Below are positions 25,156 to 62,328 of a stretch of 64,000 nt of DNA, piece after piece. The DNA is from Thermoplasmatota archaeon (lineage in GTDB: Archaea > Thermoplasmatota > E2 > JACPAO01 > JAHFTW01). The stretch covers positions 18,409 through 82,408 of the forward strand of contig JBBSVQ010000007.1 in assembly GCA_038046725.1 (NCBI GenBank), read 5' to 3'. The notes under the pieces are model-generated. The model saw nothing but the letters and a program-made list of their open reading frames with translations, was not told the origin of the DNA and made no database searches. The translations under genes and the position numbers were made by a program. How positions within the stretch are numbered: the first letter of the stretch is position 1; each line of letters starts with the position of its first letter.

Positions 25156-25233
25156 GCGCGCTGCGCGCCTGCCACCCGGCCTGGCGTCCGCTTGCCAAGC
25201 CCCTTAAGCCGGCCAACGATACGTCGAGGCGAA

Positions 25234-26199: not shown

Positions 26200-26300
26200 C
26201 CCGGGCGGGCCGCAAGGTCCGTTGGCAACGGCTAAGACCCGGCGGTGGGCTCGACGCTAGGGATGCACATGGTCGCCAAGCGAGCCGGAGGCTGGACCTG

Positions 26301-45229: not shown

Positions 45230-45371
45230 TCCCTCTCCATCCCTTCGGGGTTGGGGAGGTTAGGCTCCGGCCGCAAGGCCGGGGTCTTCCTATCCATCGT
45301 CCAGGCTGCAATCACCCTGGATTCCTTCCCCCTTGCATCTCGGTCGAGCCACGAAGGCTCCCCTTCCCACC

Positions 45372-48300
45372 ATGGCGGTCCTCCGCTACTGCCCCCACGG
45401 CAACCTGCGCTCCACGTGCCCTCAGTGCCGGGGCGATGTCGTCGCGGAGGCCGAGACCCGAGCCGCCGCCAACCGCGCCCGTGGCGAGTCGGGCAGCATG
45501 GGCCGCATCGAGGGCGCCGAGCTGCACTATCCTTGGCAGCGCTCGGCCTTGGAGGCTTGGACCGACGGGGGCCGCACCGGCCTCGTCGCCTTCTCGCTCG
45601 GACTGCCGACCGGCGATCTGCCCTACGCCGTCATCGCCGACATCGTCAACGCCAGTCCCACGTCGAATGTCCTGGTCGCATGTGCTCCCAGCGAGTCCGA
45701 GGAGATGCGGTCCACGCTCGAGGGCCGGTTTGGCCTGCGGCCCACGGCCCTCGTCGACCACCACTTCCTTGAGCCGCGCAACGACGGTGCCCTGGTCATT
45801 GCCGACTTGCAGGAGCTCGAGACCATCGACGTCTCCTCGTGGGGCCGCTTCGCGAGCAACGGCCTTCTCCTTCTGTTGGACGCGGACGGCGTCACGCAGG
45901 GTCTTGGTGCCCACCTCGTCGAGGCGCAGTTCCGCCACCGCTTCTGCCTGAGCCGCCAGCCCAGCGCCATCGACCTCCTGTGGACCCGCCCTTGGGCCCG
46001 CGCCTTCGGTCCCCTGCTGTTCCGCAGCACGGAGGAGGAGGCCCGCGACCTCGGCATCCTGCCGCGCATCAAGTACAGACTGCACGTCGAAATGCTCAAG
46101 CCGGAGGCCCGCGGCAACTCTGGCTTCGGACCGGAGGGGCCGTGGGAAGCCGCGGACATCCCGACGCGCCTCCCGGCCCTGCAAGCAGGGCCGTTCATCC
46201 GTAGCCGCGCCCGCGACGTGGCCATCCGCCGCGCCAAGGAATCGCCGGACCTTCTCGTCATCCACGACGGCGTTCCCGTGCCAGGTGCCCAGGCAACCCT
46301 CAAGCTCTCGGAGCTTCCCGACAAGCGCGATCCGGCTCCGGCTGCTTGGGTCCTCGCCACGCCGACGGCGGACGGCAAGGCCATCCTGCGTCTTGCAACC
46401 GTGGCCTTCAAGACCATCGGGCAACCCGGTGCCATTGGCGCCGTGGAGGACGCCGTCGTTCTGCCCGTCCCCGTTGACCTGTGCCGTCAGCCGCCATGGA
46501 GCGACCAGTGGCGCATGGCCGCCAACCAGCTTGACCGCGTCGCGGCGGGCCTCTTGCTGGCCACGGATGTCAGCCAGGCGATGATGGTCGAGGACCTCGA
46601 GTCCCTCGTCGGCGTTGCCCTTGCCTTGCGCGGCATTCCCGCGGAGGAACTCTACAAGCTCACGCCCGTCGTCGCCGAGGCCGCCCAGGCTGCGCATGCC
46701 GGCGAATCGATTGCCCCCGACCGCGTCCGCGCCGCGGCACGCTCGGCCGGCGGCCTCGCTGCGTCCCTTCTCGTCGCCGCCGAATCCGGTCCTCTGCACC
46801 TGCTTCGCATCGCGCATCCGCGCTTCACGCCCGTCGTGCCCGACCTGCCGCATCCTAGCCTATACGATGCGCGTCGGCACGCGTGGCGCGGCCGGGCCTT
46901 CGCCGCCCTCGCAAACGCAGCCAAGGCCGCCGACCTGGTCACCGCCTGGGGCCGCTACCCGGAGCTGCGCTTCGTCTTCCCGTCCTCCGCCTTGCTCGAG
47001 GCCGCCACGGCCTACTGCGCCAAGCACAAGCTGCGCGGCCCCCTCGATGACGAGGAGTTCAAGCCCATCCCGGACAAGACGGCCATCGCCAAGGGCGACC
47101 GCGCCGGCGCAGCCGCCGTCCTGAAGGAATGGAACGACGCCCTGGTGCTCGCCGAGGAGCACGAACGCGAATTCCTGGCGGACATGCACGCCCGCCAGCC
47201 CGAGCGTGAGCGCCGCCGCGAAGGCGCCGCCCTGCCCAACGTGTACGTCGTGGACCGCAGCCCGGACGCCATGACGCTTGAGGCGCAGGAAGGCCGCTTC
47301 CCACCCACCAACATTTCCCCCGGGTCCGAGGTCGCCCTCGTGGAGATTGGCCTGCGCGACGAGCTGTGCCGCGGCATCGTGTCCAAGATCAGCCGCCGGC
47401 GCATCGTCATCGAGTTCCCGGCGGGCGCGCCACGGCACCGCATGCCGCCCAAGCTCACCGTCAACCTGGTCTTCGATGCCAAGGTGTTCGAGGCCTACCA
47501 CTCGGCGGTCCTCGGGGCGCAGCGCGCCCTCTCGGCCACGACTCCAGTGGACGACGGCCCGGACGGCCTGCTGCGCGCCGCCCTCCTTGGCGAGTCCGAC
47601 CCGCCCGAGTCCATTCGCCAGTCCCTCCGGGGCGGCTCCCTCACGGATTCGCAGCGCACCTCCATCAACCAGGTCCTGTCGGGCGGCCGCGTCCGCCTCG
47701 TGCACGGCCCGCCCGGCACCGGCAAGACGCACACCCTGGTGCACCTCGCCCTGGCGCTCGCCCGCGCAGGCCACTCCGTTCTCGTCACGGCAGATTCCAA
47801 CGCCGCCGTGGACAACCTCGTCGTCGGCTTGCGGCGCAACGGCGGCCTCGCGGTGCGCATCGGACACGCCGTCAACCTGCGTGACGAGGCGGCCGAGGCT
47901 GCGCGCATCGACCCCATGGAAGCCCCGCCCTTCGTGCGCTGGGCCGCCCAGCAGGGCATCATCGTCGCCACGACGAACTACGGCGCCTTCCGCTACATCG
48001 ACCCCAAGGGCGGCATGAGCCCCTTCGTCTTCGACTACGTCATCCACGACGAAGCCGGGCAGGCGACGGCGCCGTCCAGCCTTGCCGCCGTCATGCGCGG
48101 CCGCCGCCTCGTGCTCGCCGGCGACCCCAAACAGCTTCCCCCGACGGTCGTCTCGATGGATGCCAAGGAGGCCGGCCTCGACGTCACGTTGTTCGAGCGC
48201 ATCGAGTCGCTCACCGGGCGCACGCGCACGCGCATGCTCGAGACGCAGTTCCGCATGCGGACGGAGATTGCCGCATTCAGCAATCTCCGTTACTACGAAG

Positions 48301-49643
48301 GAAAACTCAAGACGGACGAGAGCGCCGCGAAGCAGGAAGGCCTGCCCGACCTGCCTGCCGCCGCATTCCAGCACGTCACCGGGCGCGAGAACGAGCGCCA
48401 ACGCAACGGCTCCATCTCCAACGACTTCGAGGTCGCCTGCGTCGCCGACCTCGTGGAGAAGTTCACGCCGGCCTGCCGCGAGCAGGGCTGGACGATGGCC
48501 GTGCTCACGCCGTACCAGGCGCAACGCGAAGCCATCCGCCGCCGCCTGCCGGACACGGAAGTCTCCACGGTCGATGGCGCGCAGGGCCGCGAATGGGACG
48601 TCGTGCTGTACTCGACGGTGCGTTCCAACCCGCAGCACCGCCTCGGCTTCGTCGAGGACGAGCGCCGCCTCAACGTTGCCGTCACGCGCGCCAAGCGCAA
48701 CTTCATGCTCGTCGGCGATGAGCGCACCTTGGCCGACAACGACGCCTTCCGTTCGCTGCTTTCGACGCTCGGCAAGGTTCGCCTGCACTATCCGCCCCGC
48801 GACGCGCACGGCCGTGACCAGCGCGGCGCCCCGTTGCCGCCGCAGCGCCACCAGGCGCCGCAGGACGGCGGATTCGACGGTGGCCGCCGCCGGCGCCGCC
48901 GCCGGCGCGGCGGACGCGGCCGCGGCGACGACGTGGGCGGCCCCGAGGAAGGCATGCCGCGTCCGGCGCCCGGTCCGACGTACAGTCCGCCGCCGCGCCA
49001 AGCGCAGCCCGCACCGCAGCAGCGCCCGGACGATCGCCAAGCCGCGCCGCGCCGCGACGAGCGCGCGCCGCAGCGTCAGCGCCCCGATCCGCGCGTCGAT
49101 CTCCCACTGCCCGAGTTGCCCACGGGGCCGCGCCCCGAGCGGCGCAAGTTCGTCGTGGGCGAAGCCCACGACGCGGCGCAGCCGCCCGATGTGTCACCTG
49201 AACCACAGTCTTCGGCATCGCCCGCCGCAAAGCCGGCGACGCCGGAACCGTCCCTGCCAATGCGTCCGTCGGCGCCTGCCATCCCCTTGGCGGCCAGCGA
49301 CGACCGCCCCGTCAAGGGCAAGCGGTCGGCCAAGGCAGCCAAACCCGGATCCAAGTCAGGCCGGGCCGGCACCAAGTCCGAAGCGCCCGTCGCTGCCGCT
49401 GTAGTGCCGACGGCCGCCAGGCCGAAGGCCGCGGGCAAGGCTCCCAAGGCGGCCAAGGCCGACGCGCCGACGGACAAGCTTGCCGGGAAGACGGGCAAGC
49501 CGGAGAAACCGGCCAAGGCTGCGAAGGCCGCGAAGCCGGCCGCGGGCAAGGGCGGGCTGTGCGCTGGAGCAACGCAGGCCGGCGGCGCTTGCAGGAACAA
49601 GGCGCAGCCCGGTTCCCGGTTCTGCGCGCGCCACGCCGTCTAA
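45372..49643 (+). CDS. Giant multidomain helicase: Zn knuckle, degenerate SF2/ResIII-like module, Upf1/IGHMBP2-like SF1 helicase (AAA_11/AAA_12), RGG and AKP-rich tail, C-terminal CCCH knuckle
   Basis: VHGPPGTGKTH (Walker A), IHDEAGQ (Walker B), LAGDPKQLPP, TQFRM, LTPYQAQ, VDGAQGRE, RRLNVAVTRAK. The N-terminal region has PWQRSALEAW plus LPTGDLPYAV in place of a P-loop. Tail has GGRRRRRRRGGRGRGDD and KAAKAAKPAAGK. Ends CAGATQAGGACRNKAQPGSRFCARH. Confidence 0.85.
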   Translation: MAVLRYCPHGNLRSTCPQCRGDVVAEAETRAAANRARGESGSMGRIEGAELHYPWQRSALEAWTDGGRTGLVAFSLGLPTGDLPYAVIADIVNASPTSNVLVACAPSESEEMRSTLEGRFGLRPTALVDHHFLEPRNDGALVIADLQELETIDVSSWGRFASNGLLLLLDADGVTQGLGAHLVEAQFRHRFCLSRQPSAIDLLWTRPWARAFGPLLFRSTEEEARDLGILPRIKYRLHVEMLKPEARGNSGFGPEGPWEAADIPTRLPALQAGPFIRSRARDVAIRRAKESPDLLVIHDGVPVPGAQATLKLSELPDKRDPAPAAWVLATPTADGKAILRLATVAFKTIGQPGAIGAVEDAVVLPVPVDLCRQPPWSDQWRMAANQLDRVAAGLLLATDVSQAMMVEDLESLVGVALALRGIPAEELYKLTPVVAEAAQAAHAGESIAPDRVRAAARSAGGLAASLLVAAESGPLHLLRIAHPRFTPVVPDLPHPSLYDARRHAWRGRAFAALANAAKAADLVTAWGRYPELRFVFPSSALLEAATAYCAKHKLRGPLDDEEFKPIPDKTAIAKGDRAGAAAVLKEWNDALVLAEEHEREFLADMHARQPERERRREGAALPNVYVVDRSPDAMTLEAQEGRFPPTNISPGSEVALVEIGLRDELCRGIVSKISRRRIVIEFPAGAPRHRMPPKLTVNLVFDAKVFEAYHSAVLGAQRALSATTPVDDGPDGLLRAALLGESDPPESIRQSLRGGSLTDSQRTSINQVLSGGRVRLVHGPPGTGKTHTLVHLALALARAGHSVLVTADSNAAVDNLVVGLRRNGGLAVRIGHAVNLRDEAAEAARIDPMEAPPFVRWAAQQGIIVATTNYGAFRYIDPKGGMSPFVFDYVIHDEAGQATAPSSLAAVMRGRRLVLAGDPKQLPPTVVSMDAKEAGLDVTLFERIESLTGRTRTRMLETQFRMRTEIAAFSNLRYYEGKLKTDESAAKQEGLPDLPAAAFQHVTGRENERQRNGSISNDFEVACVADLVEKFTPACREQGWTMAVLTPYQAQREAIRRRLPDTEVSTVDGAQGREWDVVLYSTVRSNPQHRLGFVEDERRLNVAVTRAKRNFMLVGDERTLADNDAFRSLLSTLGKVRLHYPPRDAHGRDQRGAPLPPQRHQAPQDGGFDGGRRRRRRRRGGRGRGDDVGGPEEGMPRPAPGPTYSPPPRQAQPAPQQRPDDRQAAPRRDERAPQRQRPDPRVDLPLPELPTGPRPERRKFVVGEAHDAAQPPDVSPEPQSSASPAAKPATPEPSLPMRPSAPAIPLAASDDRPVKGKRSAKAAKPGSKSGRAGTKSEAPVAAAVVPTAARPKAAGKAPKAAKADAPTDKLAGKTGKPEKPAKAAKAAKPAAGKGGLCAGATQAGGACRNKAQPGSRFCARHAV

Positions 49644-50587: not shown

Positions 50588-51289
50588 TCACCACCAGACT
50601 TCCTTGAGTTTCAGGACGTATCCGAGGACGTTGACGAGGAAATGCAGCAGGGGCGTGAGGACGATGAGGGTGGCGAGCACGACCCAGTCGTCGAGCAGGG
50701 CCGCCTTGACCCAGCCGTCGGCAAGCAGTGGGCTCGCGATGGCCATGGCCAACAAGCCGAAGACGACGAAGTCGAGTTGGTCGAAGGGCACCCAGGGCCG
50801 GCCGCGGTCCCGGCCGGTGCGGCGCTTGAAGTAGGATTTCACGGCGTCGCCGACGAGGGCCATGAAGCCGACGAAGGCACCGAAGAGGGCGATGGCCCAG
50901 AGGGGGGAAGACGGCGGTGCGGCGCATATGGCGGCGATTGGGTCAGGCGTGTCGTTGCAGGGTTCGTCGGAGCCGATGGGCGCGCCGTCGAAGCCGTTGT
51001 ACCCGTAATCCCAGCCGTCCCAGAGGCCGGCGGCATCGTAGGGGGGGACAAGGAGTGCCACCGCGACGGCGGTCGCCGCACCGAGCAAGGTGCCGCCCGC
51101 GAGCCCGCGCCACGTCTTGCCGGGTCCGAGCAGGCGTTTGCCGTCCTTGCCGAGCCGTCCGCCGTCGATGGGCGCCTTCCAGCCCGGGATGAGCTTGGCG
51201 ACGAGCACGGGACTCATGTTCGCCACATAGGCCGGCAGGAACACGAGCAAAGCGTGCAGAATTGAGGCGACGACCATGCCCGGCCGCAT
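50588..51289 (-). CDS. carS: CDP-archaeol synthase CarS (start uncertain: 51289, 51316 or 51361)
   Basis: LPAYVANMSPV...PGKTWRG...GDAVKSYFKRR...PFDQLDF are the CarS/DUF46 motifs. It contains an insertion of about 45 aa (PPYDAAGLWDGWDYGYNGFDG...). Confidence 0.8.
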   Translation of the reverse strand: MRPGMVVASILHALLVFLPAYVANMSPVLVAKLIPGWKAPIDGGRLGKDGKRLLGPGKTWRGLAGGTLLGAATAVAVALLVPPYDAAGLWDGWDYGYNGFDGAPIGSDEPCNDTPDPIAAICAAPPSSPLWAIALFGAFVGFMALVGDAVKSYFKRRTGRDRGRPWVPFDQLDFVVFGLLAMAIASPLLADGWVKAALLDDWVVLATLIVLTPLLHFLVNVLGYVLKLKEVWW

Positions 51290-51394
51290 CCACGAGACCC
51301 CGTCAATTAAAGGCATCAGGGACCGGCCGGAGGCCCTCCCTGACCCTGGCGCACCCCACACCTTTTATGGGGCCAGAGGTGAGACCGCCCGAGC

Positions 51395-51934
51395 GTGGTG
51401 GCTGTGGGGCGGGTGAGAGTGATTGTGCCGGCGTCGGGCGCCCATGTCCGCAGCCTCGGCGCCCACATCTTGAGGCTGCAGAACGACGGCCGGAAGGTCG
51501 TCTTCGTCTCAGCCGACCGTCCCTACCATTCCTTGACGCAGGCCCTGCGCGAACACGGGGTCGCCGTCGATGACATCCACTTCGTTGACGCGGTGAGCTC
51601 CCTCAGCGGATCCGCTCCGGCCCACCGGCCGAGCAACGCAACGTTCCTGCCGTCGCCAACGATGCTCGAGATGCTGGCCATGCGCGTCGAACAGGCCGTC
51701 CTGCGGTTCGGTCCAGGGGCGCACATGATTCTGGACTCGCTGGACACCCTGAGCCTGTACAACGGCGCCAACCCCGTGCAAGAGTTCAGCCACTACCTCG
51801 CCAACCGCCTGCGCCTGCACGGCATCAACGGCGACTTCGTTGTCCGCGACGGCCCCAACGGCCGCCAGTTGCACGACAACATCCTTGCCTTCAGTGACGA
51901 CCGCCTCGAGTTGCCCTCTGGAGCCCCCGCATGA
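51395..51934 (+). CDS. P-loop-less KaiC/RecA-like domain protein
   Basis: Colinear with the KaiC single-domain layout. The Walker A position reads VPASGAHV. VVFVSADRPY, IHFVDAVS, HMILDSLDTL (Walker-B-like strand). Paralogue of the C-terminal domain at 25.6-26.2 kb. Confidence 0.55.
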   Translation: MVAVGRVRVIVPASGAHVRSLGAHILRLQNDGRKVVFVSADRPYHSLTQALREHGVAVDDIHFVDAVSSLSGSAPAHRPSNATFLPSPTMLEMLAMRVEQAVLRFGPGAHMILDSLDTLSLYNGANPVQEFSHYLANRLRLHGINGDFVVRDGPNGRQLHDNILAFSDDRLELPSGAPA

Positions 51935-53304
51935 GCCGCCTCTCCCTCCTTTGCGCAGCCGTCGCCCTCGTCCTGGCGGCCCCGATGGTCGTGGGCGCCA
52001 ACGCCGACGTGCATGAGGTGTCCTTCGACCGCATCGAAGCCGTCGCCGTCGCGGACTTCCGCTTCATTCCCTGCCAGGACACCGGCGCCTTCGTTCTCTT
52101 GGAAAACGGGTTCCGTTTCGAGGAGCGGCAACCCGGCACCGGGGACGCTCAACCCTACCCCGGCGGCTATCTGGCCATCGGATGCGGAGAAGCCGCCGTG
52201 ACGCGCACCGCCCCCGCAGGAGCCCGTAGCGTCGAGGTCCTGTTCCAAGGGGACCGCGTCGTCGAGGAGTTCGACGTCCAAGGCAATTCCGTCACCCGGC
52301 CTGGAGTCGCCTTCGACCAGCGCATCGCCTTCCGCAGCGGCAACGCCTCCAGCGACCGCCAGGTGGATTACATGGATCCCGGCGCCGGGTCGCTGCCGAT
52401 GCAGCCCGTCGCGCCGGACAGCTTCCTGCTGGCGCGCAGCGCGGCGACCTTCGACCTGGCGTGGGTGTTCAGTGACCAGAGTTACTTCGTCGGACCGGAC
52501 TTCCCTGACGTCCTGTCCGGCCAGGCCTTCAGCGCGACCGTGCAGAACGTCACCTTGCGCTACCCCGGGTTGCCCGTGGCCAGCAAGGTGACGGACAGCC
52601 TGCAGCGCGAGGGGACGCTGCTCGTCGGCAAGACCCGCATCGCCGCCGACATCTCCGACCCCGAGGCCGGCGACTTGCGCGTCGTGGTTGCCAACGGCCT
52701 CGCCTTCTCGCACCTGCGCGCACCCGACGGCACCAAGTTCGACACCCAGGCCAGCCGCCTCGCGGCGGGGCCCGACGGCTTCGACCGGTCGGCCGTGCTC
52801 GTCGAGACCTTGGAGGACGGCTCCGTCCAAGTCACGGTGCCTCGGGAAGTGCTCACGGACTTCGGGGCCGGCCGCTATACGGTCTCCTTCACCAGCGTGG
52901 GTGCCGTCCACACCTTCCCCTGGTTGATCCCCGTCGCGGTGCTCGTCCTCTTGGCCCCCCTGCCGTTCGCCTTGTTGGCCTACCTGCACGTGCGCCGCTT
53001 CGAGGATGAGGCCTTTGGGGGCTTCCGCCGGTCCGCCCGCAACCTGCGCATCGCGCTCGTCGTCGCCTTCGCCTATTACGTCGCGGTCCTGGTGAGTCAC
53101 TTCGCCGGCTCGCGCCTTGACCTCATGACGGCGTGGCCACTGCCATTCGAGGCGTTCCTGCTTTACCTCCAAGTCGTCATCGCCGTCGGCGCCTTCCTGG
53201 CGCTCTTCGCCGTCGCACGCGAGCTCTACCGCATCACCGTTCCCAAGGCCCTGCCCGACGCCGCTCGGGCCGGCCCTGCCCCCATGCACGAGGACGCCGA
53301 ATGA
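51931..53304 (+). CDS. Membrane protein with about 310-aa extracytoplasmic domain and 3 C-terminal TM helices
   Basis: Signal peptide (LLCAAVALVLAAPMVVGANA). ATGA overlap at both ends with neighbouring genes. Confidence 0.7.
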   Translation: MSRLSLLCAAVALVLAAPMVVGANADVHEVSFDRIEAVAVADFRFIPCQDTGAFVLLENGFRFEERQPGTGDAQPYPGGYLAIGCGEAAVTRTAPAGARSVEVLFQGDRVVEEFDVQGNSVTRPGVAFDQRIAFRSGNASSDRQVDYMDPGAGSLPMQPVAPDSFLLARSAATFDLAWVFSDQSYFVGPDFPDVLSGQAFSATVQNVTLRYPGLPVASKVTDSLQREGTLLVGKTRIAADISDPEAGDLRVVVANGLAFSHLRAPDGTKFDTQASRLAAGPDGFDRSAVLVETLEDGSVQVTVPREVLTDFGAGRYTVSFTSVGAVHTFPWLIPVAVLVLLAPLPFALLAYLHVRRFEDEAFGGFRRSARNLRIALVVAFAYYVAVLVSHFAGSRLDLMTAWPLPFEAFLLYLQVVIAVGAFLALFAVARELYRITVPKALPDAARAGPAPMHEDAE

Positions 53305-54575
53305 CCCCCGAAAAGACCGCCCCGGGTTCCGTGACCATGCAGATGCGACCGGAGCAACTGCTCGAAATCTGGCACCGCGCCAACGACGTCCTGTACGTGC
53401 ATGACCTGGGCGGCCGGTTCCTGGCCGTCAATGCGACGGCGAGCCAAACGTACGGGTACACGCCGGCCGAGTTCCTCGGGATGTCCATCAAGGACCTCGT
53501 TGACCCCGAGCACCTCGGGACGGCCATGGCCAACCTGACCGCCAAGGCAAGCGGCGCCACCGAACAGACCGTCCCCTACGAGTTGTTGACGCGCGCCAAG
53601 GACGGGCGCCCCGTTTGGGTGGAGGTCAGCACGCGCGTCCTCGCCGAAGACGGCCACGCAACGGCAATCCAGGGCTCCGCCCGCGACATCACCAAGCGCA
53701 AGCTAGCCGAAGCCGTGGCGGACCTCGTGCACGAGACCGCGCTCGCCGTGCATGAGGCGCGTTCGCTGGAGGCCGGCATCCAGGCCGTCCTCGGGCGCAT
53801 CGCAACGGTGGCGGGCTGGTCGTACGGCGAGGCCTGGTTCCCGGACGTCGACGGACGGTGCCTCACGCTGGGCCCGCAATGGGTCGGCGGCAACGGCTTG
53901 GAGAAGTTCAGCCGGCTCGCCCGGCAATACCAGTTTGCCCCCGGCGAAGGCGTCCCCGGCCGCATCTGGGCGGACGGCAAGCCGGTGTGGGGCAGCGAAC
54001 TGCCCGGCGAGGCCGACTGCCCCCGTCGTGCTGCGGCCCATGCGGCGGGCCTGCGCACGTTTGCCGCAATCCCCGTCGCCAACGGCGGCCAAGTCGCGGC
54101 AGTCTTGGTCTTCTTCGGCACGCAGGCCCGCCACGAGGACGCGCGCTGGGTGGCTGCGGCCGAGAAGGTCGCGGCGCACCTCGGCGCCTCCATCGGCCGC
54201 CGCCTGGACGTCGAGCGCGTGCGCAGCGCGGGCCGCTTGTTCGCAGCCCAGTTCGAGGCCCTGGGCGACGCGATGCTCATGCTCGATGCCGAGGGCGTTC
54301 CCCGTCAGGCCAACGCGGCGTTCCTGCGCCTGTGCGACGTCACGGTCAGCAGCAACGACGCAGCCGTCCCGCTGACGGAACGCGTCGACGACCTGCCGAA
54401 GTTCCTCGCCGCCGTCACGACGCTGTACGAGGACCGCAGCGCCGGCCGCGACACGGTCAGCTTCGAGGGCCGCAACTTGTGGCGCAACGTTGCCCCGCTG
54501 CGTTCACGCAACGGCACGAGCCTGGGCGTGCTGCTGCAAGTGCGCGAGGACGCTGCAGCGTCCTCGCGAGCATAG
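53301..54575 (+). CDS. Cytoplasmic PAS-GAF(-PAS-like) sensor protein without recognisable output domain
   Basis: PAS: VLYVHDLGGRFLAVNATASQTYGYTPAEFLGMSIKDLV...VWVEVSTRV. GAF-like: IATVAGWSYGEAWF...GEGVPGRIW...AIPV. The C-terminal 110 aa are PAS-like. No HisKA/HATPase. Confidence 0.8.
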   Translation: MTPEKTAPGSVTMQMRPEQLLEIWHRANDVLYVHDLGGRFLAVNATASQTYGYTPAEFLGMSIKDLVDPEHLGTAMANLTAKASGATEQTVPYELLTRAKDGRPVWVEVSTRVLAEDGHATAIQGSARDITKRKLAEAVADLVHETALAVHEARSLEAGIQAVLGRIATVAGWSYGEAWFPDVDGRCLTLGPQWVGGNGLEKFSRLARQYQFAPGEGVPGRIWADGKPVWGSELPGEADCPRRAAAHAAGLRTFAAIPVANGGQVAAVLVFFGTQARHEDARWVAAAEKVAAHLGASIGRRLDVERVRSAGRLFAAQFEALGDAMLMLDAEGVPRQANAAFLRLCDVTVSSNDAAVPLTERVDDLPKFLAAVTTLYEDRSAGRDTVSFEGRNLWRNVAPLRSRNGTSLGVLLQVREDAAASSRA

Positions 54576-54614
54576 TCGGCGAGCCAGCGCCGGCGCTTGC
54601 CTGGACGCGATGAG

Positions 54615-54644
54615 GTGACGCGACGGACGCGGCCGTCGCGTCAC
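54615..54644. terminator. Perfect 12-bp hairpin between convergent genes
   Basis: gtgacgcgacgg-acgcgg-ccgtcgcgtcac. The right arm overlaps the stop codon of the minus-strand KaiC-like gene. Confidence 0.4.
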
Positions 54645-55435
54645 ACAATCCGTTCCAGCGTCTCGAGGCGGAAGCCCTGCGGCGTGATGTCGTACGTGCT
54701 GACGCCGATGCCGTAGGCGCGGTTCTTGACTTTCTTCACCATGAAGAAGCGCTCGAACGTCGTGCCCTTGCGGGTGACTTCGAGTTCGAGGAGGCAGTCG
54801 GCCAGCAGCTCCAAGCGGCGTTCGGCGGCCACGCCGTGCGCTCCCTTCGACAGCACCCACAGGGCGAGGCTGCCGTTGCGGGACGTGGCGGCCTTGATGG
54901 CCGTGAGTGCTGCGACGACCTCTTCGAGGGAGTGGTGGTTGAGGAAAAAGTCGAGGCTGTGCACGACGACGCGGTCCGGCGGCCGGATGCGCGACTGGAC
55001 GCCGACGAGGCGCTGCAGGTAGTCGGCGCCGCCTCCTGGCTTGCCTGGTGCCGGCTTGGCTTGGCGCAGGTAATCCATGGAGTCGGCGCCCTCGAGGAGC
55101 CGGCGCGGGTCCATGCGCGGGCGCTCGTCGGTGGCCTTGCGGCGCTCCTGCGACGCCATCATGCTCTCGGCGAATTCCGTCTGCAGGTCGATGACCTCGA
55201 CGTGGGCGAAGTCCCAGCCGGCTTCCTTGACGGCCTGGCGCACTTCGTTTGCGGACTCGTCCGTCGTGATGTAGGCGACCTTGTCGCCGGGGTTGCCGAC
55301 GCAGAACTGCTTGGCGAAGATCTCGGCTCCGGCGCCGGCGGGGGCGAGCAGGAGGCTCGTGAATCCGCGAGGCAGGCCCCCTTTGAGGAAGGCGTCGAGG
55401 GCTTCGATGCCGGTGCTGACGACGCCGTCCGTCAC
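54641..55435 (-). CDS. KaiC-like protein with degenerate Walker A
   Basis: STGIEALDAFLKGGLPRGFTSLLLAPAGAGAEIFAKQF: KaiC N-terminal pattern, but GxGKT is replaced by GAGAE. The GTG start overlaps the upstream stop (GTGA). Confidence 0.7.
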   Translation of the reverse strand: MTDGVVSTGIEALDAFLKGGLPRGFTSLLLAPAGAGAEIFAKQFCVGNPGDKVAYITTDESANEVRQAVKEAGWDFAHVEVIDLQTEFAESMMASQERRKATDERPRMDPRRLLEGADSMDYLRQAKPAPGKPGGGADYLQRLVGVQSRIRPPDRVVVHSLDFFLNHHSLEEVVAALTAIKAATSRNGSLALWVLSKGAHGVAAERRLELLADCLLELEVTRKGTTFERFFMVKKVKNRAYGIGVSTYDITPQGFRLETLERIV

Positions 55436-56184
55436 GGCGTCACCGCAGTCGTGTCCCCGAACTTCTTCAAGAGGGGGGCCAGGCTGATGCCGTACTCGGA
55501 CAAGTCCATCATGAAGCGGGCGCGGCTGTGCTCGGTTCCGCGCATCTTGATGACCTGCAGGGTGCGCACGAGGTCGTTGTGGCGCTCCAGCTCGGAGAGG
55601 AAAATGATGCCGTCCGCGATGAACTCCTCCACGCCGAACATGCTGTAGCGCAACTCGCGTGGCGGCGTCTCGCTCGTCAGAAACGTCGTGCACCCGAGGC
55701 CGGACAGCATGGCGCCCAGGCGGAAGGTGAAGTCGCGGATGCGGCCCCTGTCCTCGAGGCGTTGGCAGATGGCGGTGATGGAGTCGATGACGAGGCGCTT
55801 GATCTGGAACTCCTTGACGATGGATTCCAGGGCGTCCACGAGGGCGGCACCGTCCTCCATGGAGTACGTGCGCTCCTGCGTGATGCCCATGCGGTGCAGG
55901 ATGGTGCGCAGATCGACGAGGCGGATGGAGCCGTCGCGCAGAAACTTGCCGTCCAGGAAGGCGTACTCCTTGGCGTTTCGTTCCAGGATTGCGACCGGTT
56001 CCGTGACGGAGAGGAACATGCCCTTCTGGCCCTTCTCGGCGCCGTGGGCGAGGAACTCCAGGGCGAGCGTGGTCTTGCCCATGCCGGAGCCCCCGGCGAG
56101 CAGGACGACGTTGCCTTCCGGGATGCCGCCGCGCAGGATCTGGTCCAGCTCCTGGATGCCGGTCTCGCAGCGGTGGATGGTCAT
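55432..56184 (-). CDS. KaiC-like single-domain RecA-superfamily ATPase (FlaH/ArlH-like size and layout)
   Basis: TGIQELDQILRGGIPEGNVVLLAGGSGMGKTTLALEF (intact Walker A), LVIDSITAI (Walker B), LQVIKMRGTEH. 250 aa. Confidence 0.88.
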   Translation of the reverse strand: MTIHRCETGIQELDQILRGGIPEGNVVLLAGGSGMGKTTLALEFLAHGAEKGQKGMFLSVTEPVAILERNAKEYAFLDGKFLRDGSIRLVDLRTILHRMGITQERTYSMEDGAALVDALESIVKEFQIKRLVIDSITAICQRLEDRGRIRDFTFRLGAMLSGLGCTTFLTSETPPRELRYSMFGVEEFIADGIIFLSELERHNDLVRTLQVIKMRGTEHSRARFMMDLSEYGISLAPLLKKFGDTTAVTP

Positions 56185-56224: not shown

Positions 56225-57550
56225 TCAGTTGACGGTGGCCTCGGCGTCTACGACGTGCAGACGCACAAGCCAACTGGAAACCCCGGTCGCCCCGCCGGCG
56301 GACAGGGTCAGGGTCGCCGCGTCCCCGGACCCCCCAGAGGCGGCGGCATCCTCGCTGGAGGAGGCCAGGATGCGGTCGGCGAAGAAACCGCGCCAAGCGG
56401 CGGCGTTGCTCGAGTCAAGGGTGAAGGTGGCGCCCGTCACCTCGAACAGGAGGTCCGAGGAGCCGTCGTGCCGCACGGACACGGTAGCCGTGTCACTCCC
56501 GGCGCGCTGGCCGGAGCCGGTCAGGTCCACGACAGTCCAGCGCAGGTGGCCGGTCCCGGTGGTGGCATCGACCTCCAGGTCGAAACCGGGGTCAACGAGG
56601 ACGACGCCGCCGAGCGTGCCCTGGCTGGCGAGCACGGCGCCACCCTCGTAGGCCAAGGTCTGGGAGGGGAAGCGCTGGTAGCGGGGGTCGAAGACGATGC
56701 GGCCGCCCGAGCGGTCCAGGGAATACGTGGTGGCGGCACCGGCCCCCGCGGCATGCTGCAGGCCATCGACGTCCGTCCACACAGCGGCGTAGGTGCCGGC
56801 CACCGTGGCACCGACGGCTCCGTCCGTGACCGTCAGGGTGTAGCCGTCCTCGAGGTCGCGCAAGGCCGAGGCGAAGGCAGGTTGCGCGAGGAGGTCGACG
56901 CTGTACTGGGGGACGGCGATGTCGACGTCGCACAGCAGCGGCACCGTGCGCGTCCCCGTGGCCGCGGTGACCGTCAGGATGATGCCGGGGCCGCCGCACC
57001 CAGCGGGGCTCGCGTCGGCGTCATGCGTCAGGCGGGCGGTGACCGTTGCGCCGGCCCCGTCGTCCGCCACGGCCTCGACCCAGGAGAGGTCGTTGTTGTC
57101 GACGCTGCCCGACTGCAGGCCAAGCGAGAACGCCTCGAGGCCCGTCACATCGGTGATTGGGGCGCCGTTGGCGGGTTCCGCCGGAACGCCGACGGCGACG
57201 CCGTCCTGCAGATGGAGGACGGCGCCCGTGAAGGTCACCTGGACCGCGAATGTCGCGTCCTCGTAGGCCAAGTGCCCCGACGCGGCCGCGCCTTGCAGGA
57301 GGGGCACCTTGGCGGGCGCGAGGTCGAACACCGTCGTCGAGGGTCCAGGGGCGTCTTGGGCCGCCAGGGCGTCGAGGCCGGCCTTGACCTGGCCCATGGC
57401 CTCCTGCGCATCGCCTTGGTGGTTGGCTTCGCGCTCCTGGATCCACACGGGCAGCGTCGTGAAGGTCCAGATGGTCATCGCCGTCGTGAAGAGTGCGACG
57501 AGAAGGACGGCGGAGACCACGCTCGAGACGCCCTCATCGTTGCCGGTCAC
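56225..57550 (-). CDS. Large archaeal type IV pilin-like protein (class III signal peptide)
   Basis: N-terminus MTGNDEGVSSVVSAVLLVALFTTAM matches the archaeal pilin N-terminal (DUF1628-type) pattern. 441 aa, Thr/Ala/Gly-rich beta-type body. GTGA overlap with the upstream pilin-like gene. Confidence 0.75.
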   Translation of the reverse strand: MTGNDEGVSSVVSAVLLVALFTTAMTIWTFTTLPVWIQEREANHQGDAQEAMGQVKAGLDALAAQDAPGPSTTVFDLAPAKVPLLQGAAASGHLAYEDATFAVQVTFTGAVLHLQDGVAVGVPAEPANGAPITDVTGLEAFSLGLQSGSVDNNDLSWVEAVADDGAGATVTARLTHDADASPAGCGGPGIILTVTAATGTRTVPLLCDVDIAVPQYSVDLLAQPAFASALRDLEDGYTLTVTDGAVGATVAGTYAAVWTDVDGLQHAAGAGAATTYSLDRSGGRIVFDPRYQRFPSQTLAYEGGAVLASQGTLGGVVLVDPGFDLEVDATTGTGHLRWTVVDLTGSGQRAGSDTATVSVRHDGSSDLLFEVTGATFTLDSSNAAAWRGFFADRILASSSEDAAASGGSGDAATLTLSAGGATGVSSWLVRLHVVDAEATVN

Positions 57551-59232
57551 AAGGTCACCACGCGGACCGTGTCAAGAAGGAGGCTGCCTTGCGTCGTGCT
57601 GGTTGGAGTGAGGTCGACGAGCCGGATGCGCGGGGCCCCGCCGTTGTACTCCGCCGTCGTGAGGGCGTGGGTGAAGGTCGCGACGGACGCCGAGGACAAG
57701 GTGCCTCGCGTGGTGTAGCTTGCGCCGTTCCAGACCTGGACCTCGAAGGTCTCGCCCGCCGTACGGTAGACGAGTTCGAGCGTCTCGCTCGAGCCGTCCG
57801 GGACGCCGGCGAGGTCCATCGTGACGTCAAGCGTGTAGGCCGGAGTGAAGGCAACCTCGACCCAGGCTTGGTCGACACGCCAAGTCTCCCCCGTCGCGCC
57901 GGCTCGGATGCTGGTGAGGCGGACTTCGAGGTCCTGGATGTCGGTCCACGTCCAGGAGCCGCCGCCCGGTCGCGCCGAGGTGACGATCCATTCAATCTGC
58001 GAGTCTGACGATGTCGCGGTGCGCGTGGGAGACGTCGTGCCGCAGGTGTTGTCGAAGCAGGCGCCCAGGGTGAAGCCGTCCGCCCCGTTTTGGCCCAAAA
58101 TGGACACGTCGGCGCGCAACGTGACGGCGGTGATTGTGCCCGTGGAGAGGGTGGGGTTGACGAGCGTGAGTTGGAGGTCGCGGTTGGCGCTCGTCGTCGT
58201 CGCGTACGACGCGTCGTCGAGGAACGTGTTCGCTGTGCCACTCCATTGGGCCGTCGTCCGGCTGGACACGCCGTTGGCCGCCAGCGTCAGTGGGCTTGAC
58301 CCCGTTGCGCCTTCAAGGACGGTTGCCTCTGCCCCGCCATCATCGCCGTCTTGGGCCGCCGCGAACGCGGCGACTGAACCCGCCGTGTCCGTGTGCGCCG
58401 AGACGTAGGTGATGAGGGTGACGGCCTCGATGAGTTCATCCTGGGAGCCGGGCGATGCGGCCAGGTTGCCGTTGAGGTCCTGCATGCCGGAGACTTGAAG
58501 GCCCAACGTCTGGCCGCCCAGGAGGTTCCAGGACTGCGCGGGCACGTCGGCGCTCCACTGGTTCGCCCCCAAGGGCGCCATGGCTCCGACGGTCGTGTAG
58601 GATGGCCCGCTGCCGTCGTCGATGCGGAAAGCCAGCGAGGGGGCGACGCTGTCGTCAATGCCCACGCAGTCGTCAGCAAGCGTCGCCGTCACCGTCACGG
58701 CCCCCGTCGTCGTGCTGAGGACGTCGGCGGGGGAAAGGGTCCAGGCAGCCACCGTCGGGGCCGTGCCGTCGAGCGGGCAGACACTGAACTCGCCGCGTTC
58801 GCCTTCATCAGCCAGAAGGGTGGAGGAGGCAATCACGGCGGCGCCGAGGATGGTGCGCTCCTGCAGCAGGCAGCTGCGCGACGGGTCCGGGGGCGAGGGG
58901 CCGGACAGGCATAGGCTGTCGCCGATGCGCCACGTCCTGCCGTCCGCGACCTGGTCGGCGACGGCCGTGAGGTCGTAGCGCACCTCGAAGCCGTCGACGT
59001 TGAGGACGAGTTCCCCGTTCGACAAGGCAATGGCCTCGCCGCCCCGGTGCACGAGCACGGCGCGCGTGCCTTCCTGCTGCAGCACGAGGTCGGCTTGGGG
59101 GGCGGGGGCATTTGACCGCAATTCGCCGAGGACGACGAAGCTGATGCCGCCGAAGACCGCCACCGTGATGGCCAGCATGAGGATGGTTCCGACGACGCTT
59201 GAGACTCCCTGCTCACCTGCGCCAGCGTTCAC
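57547..59232 (-). CDS. Large archaeal type IV pilin-like protein (class III signal peptide, DUF1628-type N-domain)
   Basis: MNAGAGEQGVSSVVGTILMLAITVAVFGG followed by the LVLQQEG...VLVHRGGEAI...WRIGD pilin-N domain. 561 aa. Confidence 0.8.
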   Translation of the reverse strand: MNAGAGEQGVSSVVGTILMLAITVAVFGGISFVVLGELRSNAPAPQADLVLQQEGTRAVLVHRGGEAIALSNGELVLNVDGFEVRYDLTAVADQVADGRTWRIGDSLCLSGPSPPDPSRSCLLQERTILGAAVIASSTLLADEGERGEFSVCPLDGTAPTVAAWTLSPADVLSTTTGAVTVTATLADDCVGIDDSVAPSLAFRIDDGSGPSYTTVGAMAPLGANQWSADVPAQSWNLLGGQTLGLQVSGMQDLNGNLAASPGSQDELIEAVTLITYVSAHTDTAGSVAAFAAAQDGDDGGAEATVLEGATGSSPLTLAANGVSSRTTAQWSGTANTFLDDASYATTTSANRDLQLTLVNPTLSTGTITAVTLRADVSILGQNGADGFTLGACFDNTCGTTSPTRTATSSDSQIEWIVTSARPGGGSWTWTDIQDLEVRLTSIRAGATGETWRVDQAWVEVAFTPAYTLDVTMDLAGVPDGSSETLELVYRTAGETFEVQVWNGASYTTRGTLSSASVATFTHALTTAEYNGGAPRIRLVDLTPTSTTQGSLLLDTVRVVTL

Positions 59233-59339
59233 GACCCAGCCTCCACCCTTTGGTCGGCCATGGGCCTAAAAGGCTTGCCTCATCAACCCGTGCCCACGGC
59301 CCCCTCTCAGCGGTGCGGCATCCGAAGGGTCATACCCCG

Positions 59340-60368
59340 GTGCCCAGTGAGCAACGCGTGGACGAGCCGGCCGAGGACACCGAGTCTGTGCTCGCCGCCT
59401 ACCGCGAGCGCAAACGCAAGGCCCTGGAGGCTGCCCGCGGCTCCGGCCTTGCCGAGGCGGCGCCCGCCCCCGATGCCCCCGTTCCAACGCGCGCCCTCAA
59501 TTCTGCCGTCGCCCCGCCCGTGGCTCCACCTGAGCCGCCCCAACAGGCCCCCGTCCAGGTGCCTGAACGCGAAGTCCTCCCCGCCGCGCCGGTGCAGGAG
59601 GATTGGGGGTCGCGCTCGCTTGAGGTGCAGCGGCCGGCGCCCATCTCCGTCCCTGGCGCGACCCTGAGCCCGCTCGGCCCCGTGCTGCGGTTGTCGGAGG
59701 CCCTCCTGAAGGACACCAAGGTGTCACTGCGGGGATCCCCCCGGGCCCGCGTGGCCGGCGTGACGATGCTGCTGCTTGGCCTGGGGTTGGCCGTGCTCGA
59801 GCGCCGACAAGCCGCCGTCGGTGCGCCCATCAATGGGCTCGACCTCGCCGCAGTCGCCCTTGCCTCCGTCGGCTTGGTGACGGCCGTCGTCGGCATGCTG
59901 TGGCCGCGCAACCGTCGCCTCGCCGTGCGCCTGGCGGCCAGCCAAAAGGAGGAGTGGCAACGAATCCAAGGCGAAACGCGCCGCCTGCAGGTCCAGTCGC
60001 GCATCGGCTTGGGGCTCACCATTGTCGGCCTCCTCACCCTCGTTGCGGGGTATGCCTTGCTGTCCCTGGGGATCCTCGCCGCCGGTGCCGCCATTGCAGG
60101 CGTCGGAATCCCCGTTCTCGTCATCGCCCAGGTGCGCCGCAGCCTGGCGCGCCGCCTGTACGTCCAGACCCTGGTCTTGAGCGGCCTCGAGGCCTCCGGC
60201 ATCGGCGGTGCCGCCCCCGACGGGCGCGTGCAACCCGTCATCATCGCCCTCGACCGTCTCCTTGGCGCGCTTCCGGAAGCGGAGGTCCAAGCCTTCCTGG
60301 CCACGCCGCAAGCGCGGGCCTACCTCGAACTGGTGGACGAGGCGACGAGGTCGCAGCGTGGACCCTGA
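59340..60368 (+). CDS. Membrane protein with Pro/Ala-rich N-terminal region and 4 TM helices (start uncertain)
   Basis: GTG at 59340 chosen to avoid overlapping the divergent pilin-like start at 59232. High GC3 in frame. No family recognised. Confidence 0.5.
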   Translation: MPSEQRVDEPAEDTESVLAAYRERKRKALEAARGSGLAEAAPAPDAPVPTRALNSAVAPPVAPPEPPQQAPVQVPEREVLPAAPVQEDWGSRSLEVQRPAPISVPGATLSPLGPVLRLSEALLKDTKVSLRGSPRARVAGVTMLLLGLGLAVLERRQAAVGAPINGLDLAAVALASVGLVTAVVGMLWPRNRRLAVRLAASQKEEWQRIQGETRRLQVQSRIGLGLTIVGLLTLVAGYALLSLGILAAGAAIAGVGIPVLVIAQVRRSLARRLYVQTLVLSGLEASGIGGAAPDGRVQPVIIALDRLLGALPEAEVQAFLATPQARAYLELVDEATRSQRGP

Positions 60369-62328
60369 CGACGCGGCCGAGGAGAGGCCCGGCCTGGCCG
60401 CGCGCCTGCGCGAAGCCGGCAACGCCGACGACGCGGCCGTGGCGCGTGCGCGCGCGCACAAGGCTGGCCTGGCGGAGCGCATGCGCGCCATGGTGGCGGA
60501 CGGCGGCGTGGAGCCGGTTGCGGCCGTCGCGGACCTCGGCACGACGACGTCGCGTGCCGATGTGGCGCCCGTCGAGCCCGAGGTCGCGACGTTCGCGCAG
60601 CGGCTGCGCGGCGGCAAGGCTGCTCCGGCCGCCCTGTTCGAGCGCGCGGCGCAGGCTCCAGCGCGCAACGAATCCCCTTCGGATTCCGCTCGCGCCCCCG
60701 CTGGCGTTCCGCGTGCACAACCCCCGCCGGCGCGGGTCCAGCCGGCAGCCACCACGCGCATGGTGCGCTGGTTCCTCGGGCGCGAGGAGCAAACGGCGGG
60801 CGAGGGCCCGGTCACGCCGATTCCTCCGCTGGAAGCCGGTTGGGAGCAGGTGGACTTCTACGACCTCGACCCGCCCTTCTCGTTCGTGCGCATCGTGCGC
60901 CAGAGCGACAACGGGCAGTTGCGCTACGAGGCCATCGAGCCCGTGCTGTCGGAGCGTGAACAACGCACCTTCGAGTTCGTGCAGGACGCCCTGGTGCGCG
61001 GCCTGAACATCGACCCGGGGCCGATGAAGCCGGAGCAGCGCGAGGGGTACCTGCTTGGGGCGGTGCGCCAGATCCTGAAGGACTACCGCATCCGCCTCGA
61101 CACCCGGGAGCAACTGCGCGTCGAGTACTACCTGCGCCGCGACTTCCTTGGGCTCGGAACAATCCATTCCGTCATGGTGGACCCGCGCATCGAGGACATC
61201 TCGTGCGACGGGGCCGCGGAGCCGCTCTTCATCTTCCACCGCGAACACGAATCCATCCCGTCCAACATCCGCTTCCGCTCCGACGGCGAGCTCGACGCTT
61301 TCGTCATCCGCCTGGCGCAGCGCTCCGGCAAGGCCATCTCCATCTCCGACCCCATCCTGGACGCAGCCCTCCCGGACGGGTCTCGCCTGCAGGCGACGTT
61401 GGGTCGCGAGGTGACGCAGAACGGATCCACGTTCACCATCCGGCGCTTCAAGCCCGACCCGTTCACGCCGCTCGACCTGGTGCGCTTCGGGACCATGAGC
61501 ATCGACATGCTGACGTGGTTCTGGCTCACCGTCGAAGCCGGCCAATCGCTCATTTTCTCGGGTGGAACGGCCTCGGGCAAGACGACGGGCCTGAACGCCA
61601 TCGCCCAATTCATCCCGCCCCAGGCAAAAGTGGTGTCCATCGAGGACACGCGCGAAGTCAACCTGCCGCACCACAACTGGATCAAGGCCGTCACGCGCAG
61701 CGGATCGACGTCCGAGGGCACGGGGGAGATCGGCATGTTCGACCTGCTCAAGGCGTCGCTGCGCCAGCGCCCGGAATACATCCTCGTCGGTGAAGTGCGT
61801 GGCATCGAGGCGACGGTCGCGTTCCAGGCCATGGCGACCGGCCACACGGTGTACTCGACGATGCACGCCGACTCAGCGCGCTCCGTCGTCTATCGGTTGG
61901 AGAACGACCCCATCAACGTCCCGCGCCTGGTGCTGCAGGCCCTCGACATCATCGCCATCCAGGCCCAAGTCCGCTACAAGGGCAAGCGCGTGCGCCGCGT
62001 CAAGGAAATCGTCGAACTCGTCGGCATGGACCCGTCGACGAAGGAGATTCTCACGAACACCGTGTTCAAGTGGGACGCGGCGAACGACACGTTCGAGATG
62101 GGCGCGCGCTCGTACCTCATCGACGACATCGCCAGCGACCGCAACTGGAGCAAGGCGCGCATGGCCGAGGAGCAGGCGAACCGCCGCCGCGTCCTGCAAT
62201 GGATGATTGACCAGGGGTACCGCGACGTGCGCGAGATCACGGCCGTCGTGCAGGCCTACTACCGCGACCCAGCCTCCGTCCTGCAACGCATCGCCGCCTC
62301 CCCAGCCGCTCCGGGGGCCAAGGCGTGA
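60358..62328 (+). CDS. Type II/IV secretion-family ATPase (FlaI/PilB/VirB11-like) with N-terminal Ala-rich extension
   Basis: FSGGTASGKTTGLNAI Walker A, EDTREV Asp box, YILVGEVRG Walker B, TGHTVYSTMHA His box. GTG at 60358, alternative ATG at 60760. Confidence 0.9.
   Translation: MDPDDAAEERPGLAARLREAGNADDAAVARARAHKAGLAERMRAMVADGGVEPVAAVADLGTTTSRADVAPVEPEVATFAQRLRGGKAAPAALFERAAQAPARNESPSDSARAPAGVPRAQPPPARVQPAATTRMVRWFLGREEQTAGEGPVTPIPPLEAGWEQVDFYDLDPPFSFVRIVRQSDNGQLRYEAIEPVLSEREQRTFEFVQDALVRGLNIDPGPMKPEQREGYLLGAVRQILKDYRIRLDTREQLRVEYYLRRDFLGLGTIHSVMVDPRIEDISCDGAAEPLFIFHREHESIPSNIRFRSDGELDAFVIRLAQRSGKAISISDPILDAALPDGSRLQATLGREVTQNGSTFTIRRFKPDPFTPLDLVRFGTMSIDMLTWFWLTVEAGQSLIFSGGTASGKTTGLNAIAQFIPPQAKVVSIEDTREVNLPHHNWIKAVTRSGSTSEGTGEIGMFDLLKASLRQRPEYILVGEVRGIEATVAFQAMATGHTVYSTMHADSARSVVYRLENDPINVPRLVLQALDIIAIQAQVRYKGKRVRRVKEIVELVGMDPSTKEILTNTVFKWDAANDTFEMGARSYLIDDIASDRNWSKARMAEEQANRRRVLQWMIDQGYRDVREITAVVQAYYRDPASVLQRIAASPAAPGAKA

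Follow-up and report, generated by a model that had tools for sequence, protein, structure and literature searches.

How might a group of archaeal genes pass on a signal when none of their products carries an output domain? The question is raised by a 64,000-nt stretch of contig JBBSVQ010000007.1 (positions 18,409 to 82,408; hereafter the window), which belongs to an uncultured soil Thermoplasmatota genome (68 % GC, 86 % complete). Three open reading frames (ORFs) lie here on the plus strand, at 51395–51934 (ORF1), 51931–53304 (ORF2) and 53301–54575 (ORF3), and are predicted to encode a KaiC-fold protein that lacks the P-loop, a membrane protein with a large ectodomain and a PAS-GAF-PAS protein, respectively. 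The answer favoured herein, to which we assign a probability of about one-half, is that they constitute a signalling operon with a conserved core of two proteins, a membrane sensor devoid of a transmitter (ORF2) and a dead KaiC-fold protein (ORF1), in which signals would travel from the sensor to the inactivated KaiC domain (iKaiC), and from there to KaiC and the pilus. ORF1 and ORF2 are translationally coupled, co-inherited and usually situated beside a KaiC/iKaiC pair within a pilus locus.

An earlier note on this DNA had proposed that none of the three proteins possesses an output domain, and Pfam and NCBIfam searches bear this out, as no kinase, cyclase, helix-turn-helix or other output domain was found at E ≤ 0.1. 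The ORF coordinates, overlaps and motifs given in that note were likewise all recovered from the sequence.

The operon and its KaiC-fold protein

The three ORFs are real genes. Their third-position GC contents of 0.86, 0.89 and 0.83 for ORF1, ORF2 and ORF3, respectively, are of the coding type for genes of the source genome, and ATGA stop/start overlaps join ORF1 to ORF2 (51931–51934) and ORF2 to ORF3 (53301–53304). Related metagenomic contigs show such 4-nt overlaps too, L026 and L027 at both junctions and L028 at the first one only. A TATA-like box, CTTTTAT, can be read at 51362–51368 (+), approximately 26 nt 5′ of the GTG of ORF1; it is unchanged across four related loci, one of which has an ORF1 of only 52 % identity, and AT-rich heptamers are scarce in a genome of this composition. 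It is the spacing of archaeal promoters that allows a distance of this kind to be read as that of a TATA box, and since the geometry from box to GTG fits, the element is likely the promoter of an operon transcript that is leaderless or has a very short leader. The divergent CarS gene has its true start at the ATG at 51277, with a mirror-image box of its own (TTTAATT, 51305–51311), and the 33-nt ‘intergenic’ gap obtained from the longest ORFs is therefore an artefact.

ORF1 (51395–51934, +), of 179 aa, is, by its sequence and predicted structure, a minimal, stand-alone iKaiC with a single RecA/KaiC fold, in the sense of Galperin et al. 2018 (PMC5847659). Its long GTG start is backed by homologues of 170–180 aa that cover 95–98 % of the protein. 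The Pfam family DUF7504 (PF24336) is matched with 43.3 bits against a cut-off of 27 (E 7.3e-11, profile positions 11–161 of 179), and no NCBIfam model is matched, hence neither a KaiC nor an ArlH model. The motifs VVFVSADRPY, IHFVDAVS, HMILDSLDTL and VPASGAHV are all present in the translation, the last of these occupying the Walker A position. In an alignment of 43 homologues (143–186 aa), this position is variable, with a family consensus of VPxxxxHxR, and is never GxxxxGK[ST]. Invariant or nearly so are ADRPY, SPTMLEM-AMR-EQ, the Walker-B-like DSL and LYNG--PVQEFSHYLANRLR, with the conserved LYNG stretch reading LYNGxxPVQEFSHYLANRLR.

Structural prediction with AlphaFold2 generated a confident model of ORF1 (predicted local distance difference test, pLDDT, 92.4; predicted template modelling score, pTM, 0.89), for which the best PDB matches in Foldseek are KaiC CI/CII, PH0284, Sso2452 and RecA (probability 1.0, template modelling score 0.62–0.73). 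This likeness to KaiC appears by fold comparison alone, as the family profile finds nothing meaningful amongst PDB sequences. By comparison to the neighbouring KaiC, ORF1 is without the N-terminal TGIxxLDxxLxGG motif and approximately 70 C-terminal residues. It thus shares with iKaiCs a KaiC/RecA fold, a lost P-loop and an operon link to signalling parts; what separates it from KaiC proper is the missing P-loop and a score of 20.1 bits to PF06745, under the cut-off of 26.6. The description of the first protein as KaiC-like without a Walker A therefore stands, with the DUF7504 match, alignment, AlphaFold2 and Foldseek in agreement, and the fold on which the earlier proposal depended is indeed detected.

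ORF1 was also considered as a possible ArlH. This candidate was rejected, as no NCBIfam model is matched and the genes nearby encode a PilB3-type ATPase, TadC and large pilins, with none of the arl type among them. Homologues of ORF1 that are likewise small iKaiCs (approximately 190–200 aa) are widespread in the phylum, with matches in 155 of 301 genomes searched. Outside the window, the source genome harbours a further 179-aa P-loop-less KaiC-like paralogue directly 3′ of orc1/cdc6 (contig C16:117–1953).

The membrane protein and the PAS-GAF-PAS protein

ORF2 (51931–53304, +) encodes a 457-aa protein with a signal peptide, an extracytoplasmic double β-sandwich of approximately 300 aa, placed at about residues 26–325, and three C-terminal transmembrane (TM) helices, ending about 10–20 residues past the last of these. 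The AlphaFold2 model (pLDDT 82.5) displays two β-sandwich domains. No Pfam or NCBIfam family is matched at E ≤ 0.1, and so neither HisKA nor HATPase_c was found.

What this protein might do is suggested by its paralogues. Using BLASTP, residues 58–446 are 30 % identical (E 7e-34) to a 693-aa histidine kinase with HisKA and HATPase_c (L022:718–2799), adjacent to which lies a REC gene. Longer paralogues in related genomes (675–780 aa) similarly possess the same ectodomain and membrane module followed by HisKA-HATPase_c, again with a receiver gene adjacent. A census of 1.84 billion representative proteins returned only 148 representatives of the family. Those exceeding 500 aa number 77, with an H-box in 74; all eight sampled long members are kinases, and in two of them a PAS domain separates HisKA from the membrane module. 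The short classes comprise 32 kinase-less members (400–500 aa) and 20 consisting of the TM part only (<160 aa). Because the same ectodomain and TM module are fused to HisKA-HATPase_c in most family members, ORF2 is best understood as a signal-input module and, judging by homology, as the sensor half, without its transmitter, of a small histidine-kinase family restricted to a Thermoplasmatota lineage. The proposal that the membrane protein with an ectodomain is a sensor is strengthened accordingly, as its module shares homology with the sensor portion of genuine histidine kinases.

The best-conserved part of ORF2 is not the ectodomain; it is the membrane module together with an invariant cytoplasmic loop, RRFE-EAFGGFRRSARNLR, at about residues 352–375, and the kinase-less copies of the family have an invariant loop of their own, EAFGGFRRSAR. 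On the family tree, sensors linked to an iKaiC form one group (support 80/97). The tree is unrooted, with kinase-type sequences on either side of the midpoint, and there are only hints of kinase loss as the direction of evolution. The source genome contains no kinase-type paralogue amongst the 86 % of it that is represented, but does possess one more kinase-less copy and one TM-only copy.

With regard to the kinase-type paralogues, these are preceded by a conserved secreted protein of approximately 315 aa with no Pfam match (L022:2796–3749, L024:284–1225), possibly a binding protein that assists this two-component sensor. The apparent ‘fusion’ ORFs of 655–700 aa in L014 and L026 arise artefactually from high-GC frames with few stop codons and do not represent fusions of ORF1 to ORF2.

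ORF3 (53301–54575, +) encodes a predicted cytoplasmic protein of 424 aa, in which Pfam finds PAS and GAF domains alone (PAS_4, 61.2 bits; GAF_2, 44.6 bits; PAS_8, 32.9 bits) and no output domain. The 23 homologues at E < 1e-85 have PAS/GAF only, none with an output domain; orthologues are 405–443 aa in length, and three longer relatives reach 547–592 aa. The characterization of this gene product as a PAS-GAF protein without an output domain consequently holds for ORF3 and for all of its orthologues, which are confined to loci of the window's own GTDB genus. The solved PAS domains nearest to ORF3 come from multi-sensor hybrid histidine kinases and are of the LOV type. ORF3 itself can be ruled out as a LOV photoreceptor, as the NCRFL cysteine motif is absent from its sequence.

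The pilus locus and the conservation of gene order

The operon converges on two minus-strand genes of the KaiC family, which the earlier note had taken for a KaiC pair. One of them (55432–56184, −) does encode a single-domain KaiC-like ATPase (PF06745, 191.6 bits; NCBIfam KaiC models) in which both Walker motifs are intact (A, GGSGMGKT; B, LVIDS). The other (54641–55435, −; PF06745, 74.7 bits), hereafter iKaiC264 from its 264 aa, is a second inactivated KaiC, in which Walker A reads APAGAGAE and VVVHSL replaces the Walker B aspartate. A GTGA overlap couples iKaiC264 to the KaiC gene upstream of it, and its orthologues in related contigs have lengths of 260–268 aa.

To assess conservation, comparisons were made with genomes of the GTDB family (32 for co-occurrence) and with related metagenomic contigs or loci (L numbers). 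The ORF1–ORF2 pair is conserved in six genera of one family, and ORF1 is directly followed by ORF2 in 14 of the 17 genomes that possess ORF1. Where ORF2 is gone, as in G024 and G032, ORF1 still adjoins iKaiC264. The gene order helicase, CarS, ORF1, ORF2, iKaiC264, KaiC, pilins, PilB and TadC is retained in genera g1, g3, g4 and g9, all of which have the pair converging on KaiC/iKaiC264. Orthologues of ORF1 and iKaiC264 are both present in 13 of the 32 family genomes and both absent from 13, with ORF1 alone in four and iKaiC264 alone in two, these counts (13/4/2/13) being of relatives and not of independent events; both genomes with iKaiC264 only have contig breaks at the locus. In other Thermoplasmatota families, the homologues closest to ORF1 lie directly 3′ of an active KaiC at all six loci examined, and this KaiC is 41–48 % identical to that of the window. 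As these distant homologues sit directly behind KaiCs of the same subfamily, the arrangement supports KaiC as the natural partner of ORF1-type iKaiCs.

ORF3 is less widely shared. The triplet, with ORF3 between ORF2 and iKaiC264, was found at six loci (the window, three genomes and two contigs), all from the window's genus, across which ORF2 identity falls to 37 %. At the loci of g3, g4 and g9 with a readable site, no PAS-GAF gene intervenes between the ORF1–ORF2 pair and the KaiC genes on which it converges. Thus the triplet, put forward as a conserved unit to be sought in other genomes, is kept elsewhere, but narrowly, within one genus; other genera have the pair without ORF3, and in g5 the pair abuts a Cas4-like gene.

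Two congeners of the source organism (G010 and G012) have a clean empty site, in which approximately 13.7 kb, from ORF1 to the second TadC gene, is absent. Here CarS is followed directly by the gene for a Cas4-like membrane nuclease, which in the source genome lies beyond the pilus block. This presence/absence polymorphism maps to 51278–51394 in the window and, past the window end, to about 65081–65673. Such empty sites suggest that the triplet and pilus locus might be a single block of gain or loss, an idea that is weakened by g5 and by contig L026, described below. With regard to a mobile island, no integrase-like gene was seen in the block, and flanking repeats were not formally searched. 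In many relatives (L028:4776–6388, L042, L045, L046, L049 and L050) an extra divergent gene pair, absent from the window, lies between CarS and ORF1; it consists of a soluble protein of approximately 352 aa without a family match and another DUF7504 iKaiC.

Where the two sets of genes converge, ORF3 ends at 54575 and the iKaiC264 gene at 54641. The earlier note had described a 12-bp hairpin between them, and a perfect stem of this length is present (54615–54626 with 54633–54644, 6-nt loop) within an imperfect hairpin extending over 54601–54658. Folding of 54570–54660 gives a minimum free energy of −52.6 kcal/mol (z = −4.87), with none of 200 shuffled sequences folding as well. The right arm of the stem includes the stop codon of the iKaiC264 gene, and since no T-run follows the hairpin, it is at best a candidate archaeal terminator. 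Two perfect palindromes precede it, one of 13 bp (CGCGAGGACGCTG/CAGCGTCCTCGCG) at 54543–54568 within the last codons of ORF3, and one of 9 bp at 54583–54600, such that the junction presents three successive stem–loops.

Beyond the KaiC gene lie two large pilin-like genes (56225–59232, −), with matches to Pilin_N (44.3 bits), DUF7289 (38 bits) and arch_flag_Nterm. Divergent from these is a pilus-machinery operon of four genes (59199–64000, +), the last of which continues past the window end. It encodes a membrane protein (59199–60368, +), a PilB-type ATPase (60208–62328, +; T2SSE, 137.6 bits, and PilB3_C), a TadC (62325–63251, +; T2SSF, 51 bits) and a second TadC-like protein of 610 aa (63248 to about 65080, + on the genome contig), this last label resting on a reading of the sequence and not on Pfam. 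By their family matches, the genes 3′ of the module make up a complete archaeal type IV pilus locus (PilB ATPase, TadC and pilins with class III signal peptides), and hence the claim that the module converges on the KaiC genes of such a locus is upheld. On the other side of CarS, and syntenic with it across the family, is a gene for a 1436-aa superfamily-1 helicase (45333–49643, +; AAA_11/AAA_12 in orthologues) with a long, low-complexity C-terminal tail rich in Pro, Ala, Lys and Arg.

Candidate signalling routes and their precedents

Under the favoured reading, ORF2 would sense an extracellular cue, possibly a glycan or surface given its CBM-like fold and, instead of autophosphorylating, would relay a conformational change to an attached ORF1 by way of the invariant cytoplasmic loop. 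ORF1, acting as a KaiC subunit without catalytic activity, might then dock on, or enter, the rings of KaiC-family ATPases, the likeliest target being the neighbouring KaiC/iKaiC264 pair. By altering the ATPase or phosphorylation state of these proteins, or their contact with the PilB motor, it would tune pilus assembly. In the window's own genus, ORF3 could provide the adaptor ORF1 with a further input from the cytoplasm, either a ligand or a redox signal. A fuller formulation is put forward only tentatively: the sensor module of a histidine kinase would have been disconnected from phosphorelay signalling and coupled instead, in trans, to a KaiC adaptor lacking the P-loop, which in turn would report to a KaiC/iKaiC ring in control of the type IV pilus. 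The earlier note had the module feeding an active KaiC: the pair does usually converge on one, but the feeding itself is conjecture, and in one genus the ORF1–ORF2 pair persists where both the KaiC pair and the pilus block are missing.

Several observations weigh against this route to the pilus, and most of them lend themselves to a different account, namely that the sensor/iKaiC module is real but unrelated to the pilus locus, acting on other KaiC paralogues or another process. Across the family, synteny covers approximately 18 kb on and about the module and takes in the helicase and CarS genes, which are unrelated to it, so that adjacency to the pilus genes could be inherited gene order. Genus g5 retains ORF1–ORF2 between CarS and the Cas4-like gene but lacks the pilus block there, and nowhere in its genomes (85–86 % complete) is there an orthologue of iKaiC264; on contig L026 the triplet is followed by unrelated genes in place of the KaiC pair and pilus block. 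Other KaiC/iKaiC loci in the genome, one with a pilin (contig C14) and one beside orc1/cdc6 (C16), offer alternative contexts, and the co-occurrence counts may reflect few loss events among related genomes. Independently of this account, Foldseek finds no specific match for the ORF2 ectodomain, returning generic jelly-rolls only (CBM61, Eph ligand-binding domain, MAM) with low whole-chain template modelling scores. The unrelated module is the main rival explanation, possible if rather doubtful: it sits poorly with ORF1 and iKaiC264 being concordant in 13 + 13 genomes and discordant in six, with ORF1 remaining against iKaiC264 where ORF2 has been lost, and with distant ORF1 homologues being operon partners of the same KaiC subfamily.

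Two further explanations fit the data less well. ORF2 could be a structural surface protein (an adhesin, pilus anchor or stator) with ORF1 as its cytoplasmic scaffold in the manner of ArlH, and no signal transduced. Generic β-sandwich and CBM-like folds are indeed common in adhesins, large pilin-like genes are close by, and KaiC-like ArlH is presented as a structural motor component in PMC5019145. That such a role is very improbable follows from the fusion of the same ectodomain and TM module to HisKA-HATPase_c in most family members, from the conservation of ORF2 being highest in the cytoplasmic loop and TM module rather than the ectodomain, and from the lack of an ArlH match for ORF1. Equally, the sensor and membrane module that ORF2 has in common with full kinases would suit a kinase-less decoy, which would form heterodimers with its full-length paralogues of the histidine-kinase type and dampen a two-component pathway, with ORF1 incidental; in bacteria, there are precedents for truncated sensors that act as inhibitors of their kinases. 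A decoy is nevertheless very improbable here, as it has no kinase-type paralogue to act on in the (incomplete) source genome, and leaves the close and widely kept coupling to ORF1 unexplained; moreover, the kinase-less copies carry an invariant loop of their own.

How much of the sensor-to-iKaiC route is new? ‘KaiC hub’ signalling in archaea has reportedly been predicted from genomes since 2017, and a 2017 mBio paper by Makarova, Galperin and Koonin is said to treat iKaiC domains (DUF835, MEDS and others) in archaeal signalling. Inactivated KaiC domains, including REC-iKaiC architectures, have been described as archaeal signalling parts (PMC5847659; Galperin et al. 2018), and KaiC-family genes inside or beside archaeal type IV pilus loci have been predicted to be pilus regulators, with a second interacting component usually not evident in that survey (PMC4858521; Makarova, Koonin & Albers 2016). 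To call the module an undescribed signalling route, as had been done, is therefore too strong: iKaiC adaptors in KaiC hubs and KaiC at pilus loci are already published, and the new part is the pairing of an iKaiC with a sensor half. A literature search, which did not extend to the 2017 mBio iKaiC paper, found no pairing of an iKaiC with a histidine-kinase-family sensor half, no paper on DUF7504 and no experimental test of archaeal KaiC-hub signalling.

With described iKaiC systems, ORF1 has in common a KaiC/RecA fold, lost ATPase motifs and an association, by gene neighbourhood or fusion, with signalling parts (REC, PAS), and a non-catalytic partner role in KaiC hubs has been proposed for such domains. 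It differs in belonging to another Pfam family (DUF7504), in being a minimal stand-alone domain, and in having as its fixed partner a separate membrane protein that is the putative sensor half of a histidine-kinase family. The locus resembles other pilus loci (PMC4858521) in harbouring KaiC genes in or beside a PilB/TadC/pilin cluster, but it has three additional components, namely two iKaiCs and a sensor, joined in one genus by a PAS-GAF protein. ArlH (FlaH) of the archaellum motor is likewise a single-domain KaiC-like protein working with a PilB-family ATPase; however, according to PMC5019145 and bioRxiv 10.1101/2021.03.19.436134, it binds ATP, autophosphorylates and is encoded in the arl operon, whereas ORF1 has no P-loop or ArlH model match and the present locus no archaellum genes. 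Membrane sensor histidine kinases of the same lineage, with adjacent receiver genes, share with ORF2 its ectodomain and three-helix module; unlike them, ORF2 has no HisKA/HATPase_c, and where their genes are paired with a response regulator, that of ORF2 is paired with an iKaiC.

For most KaiC-like proteins neither input nor partner is known, which is one reason that the KaiC hub stays a prediction. The locus provides a compact test case, with a sensor vouched for by kinase-bearing paralogues, a minimal dead-KaiC adaptor with a confident model, an active KaiC with a second dead partner, and a pilus as candidate output. If the favoured reading is correct, it would reveal a way in which archaea link the sensing of extracellular cues to KaiC-type ATPases with no phosphotransfer involved, and would illustrate the passage of sensor modules from one signalling system to another. 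The fuller and more tentative formulation, if true, would represent a traceable natural hand-over between a bacterial-type two-component system and an archaeal KaiC-hub system, both of which would accept the same membrane sensors.

The window contains a second iKaiC signalling gene, encoding a REC-DUF7504 fusion of 335 aa (25192–26199, +). Given this fusion and the published REC-iKaiC architectures (PMC5847659), iKaiC appears to act as a signalling domain elsewhere too. The gene overlaps the start of another, for a 270-aa protein without a family match, the two together spanning 25192–27008 (+). Outside the window, the same genome (G000) possesses a second pilin-linked cluster (contig C14:51795–56296), which encodes a 122-aa protein without a Pfam match, a protein that joins a weakly KaiC-like N-terminal half to a small GTPase of the Ras family, and a KaiC/DUF7504 protein with the Walker A sequence GPPFLGKE, followed by a pilin-like protein of 670 aa.

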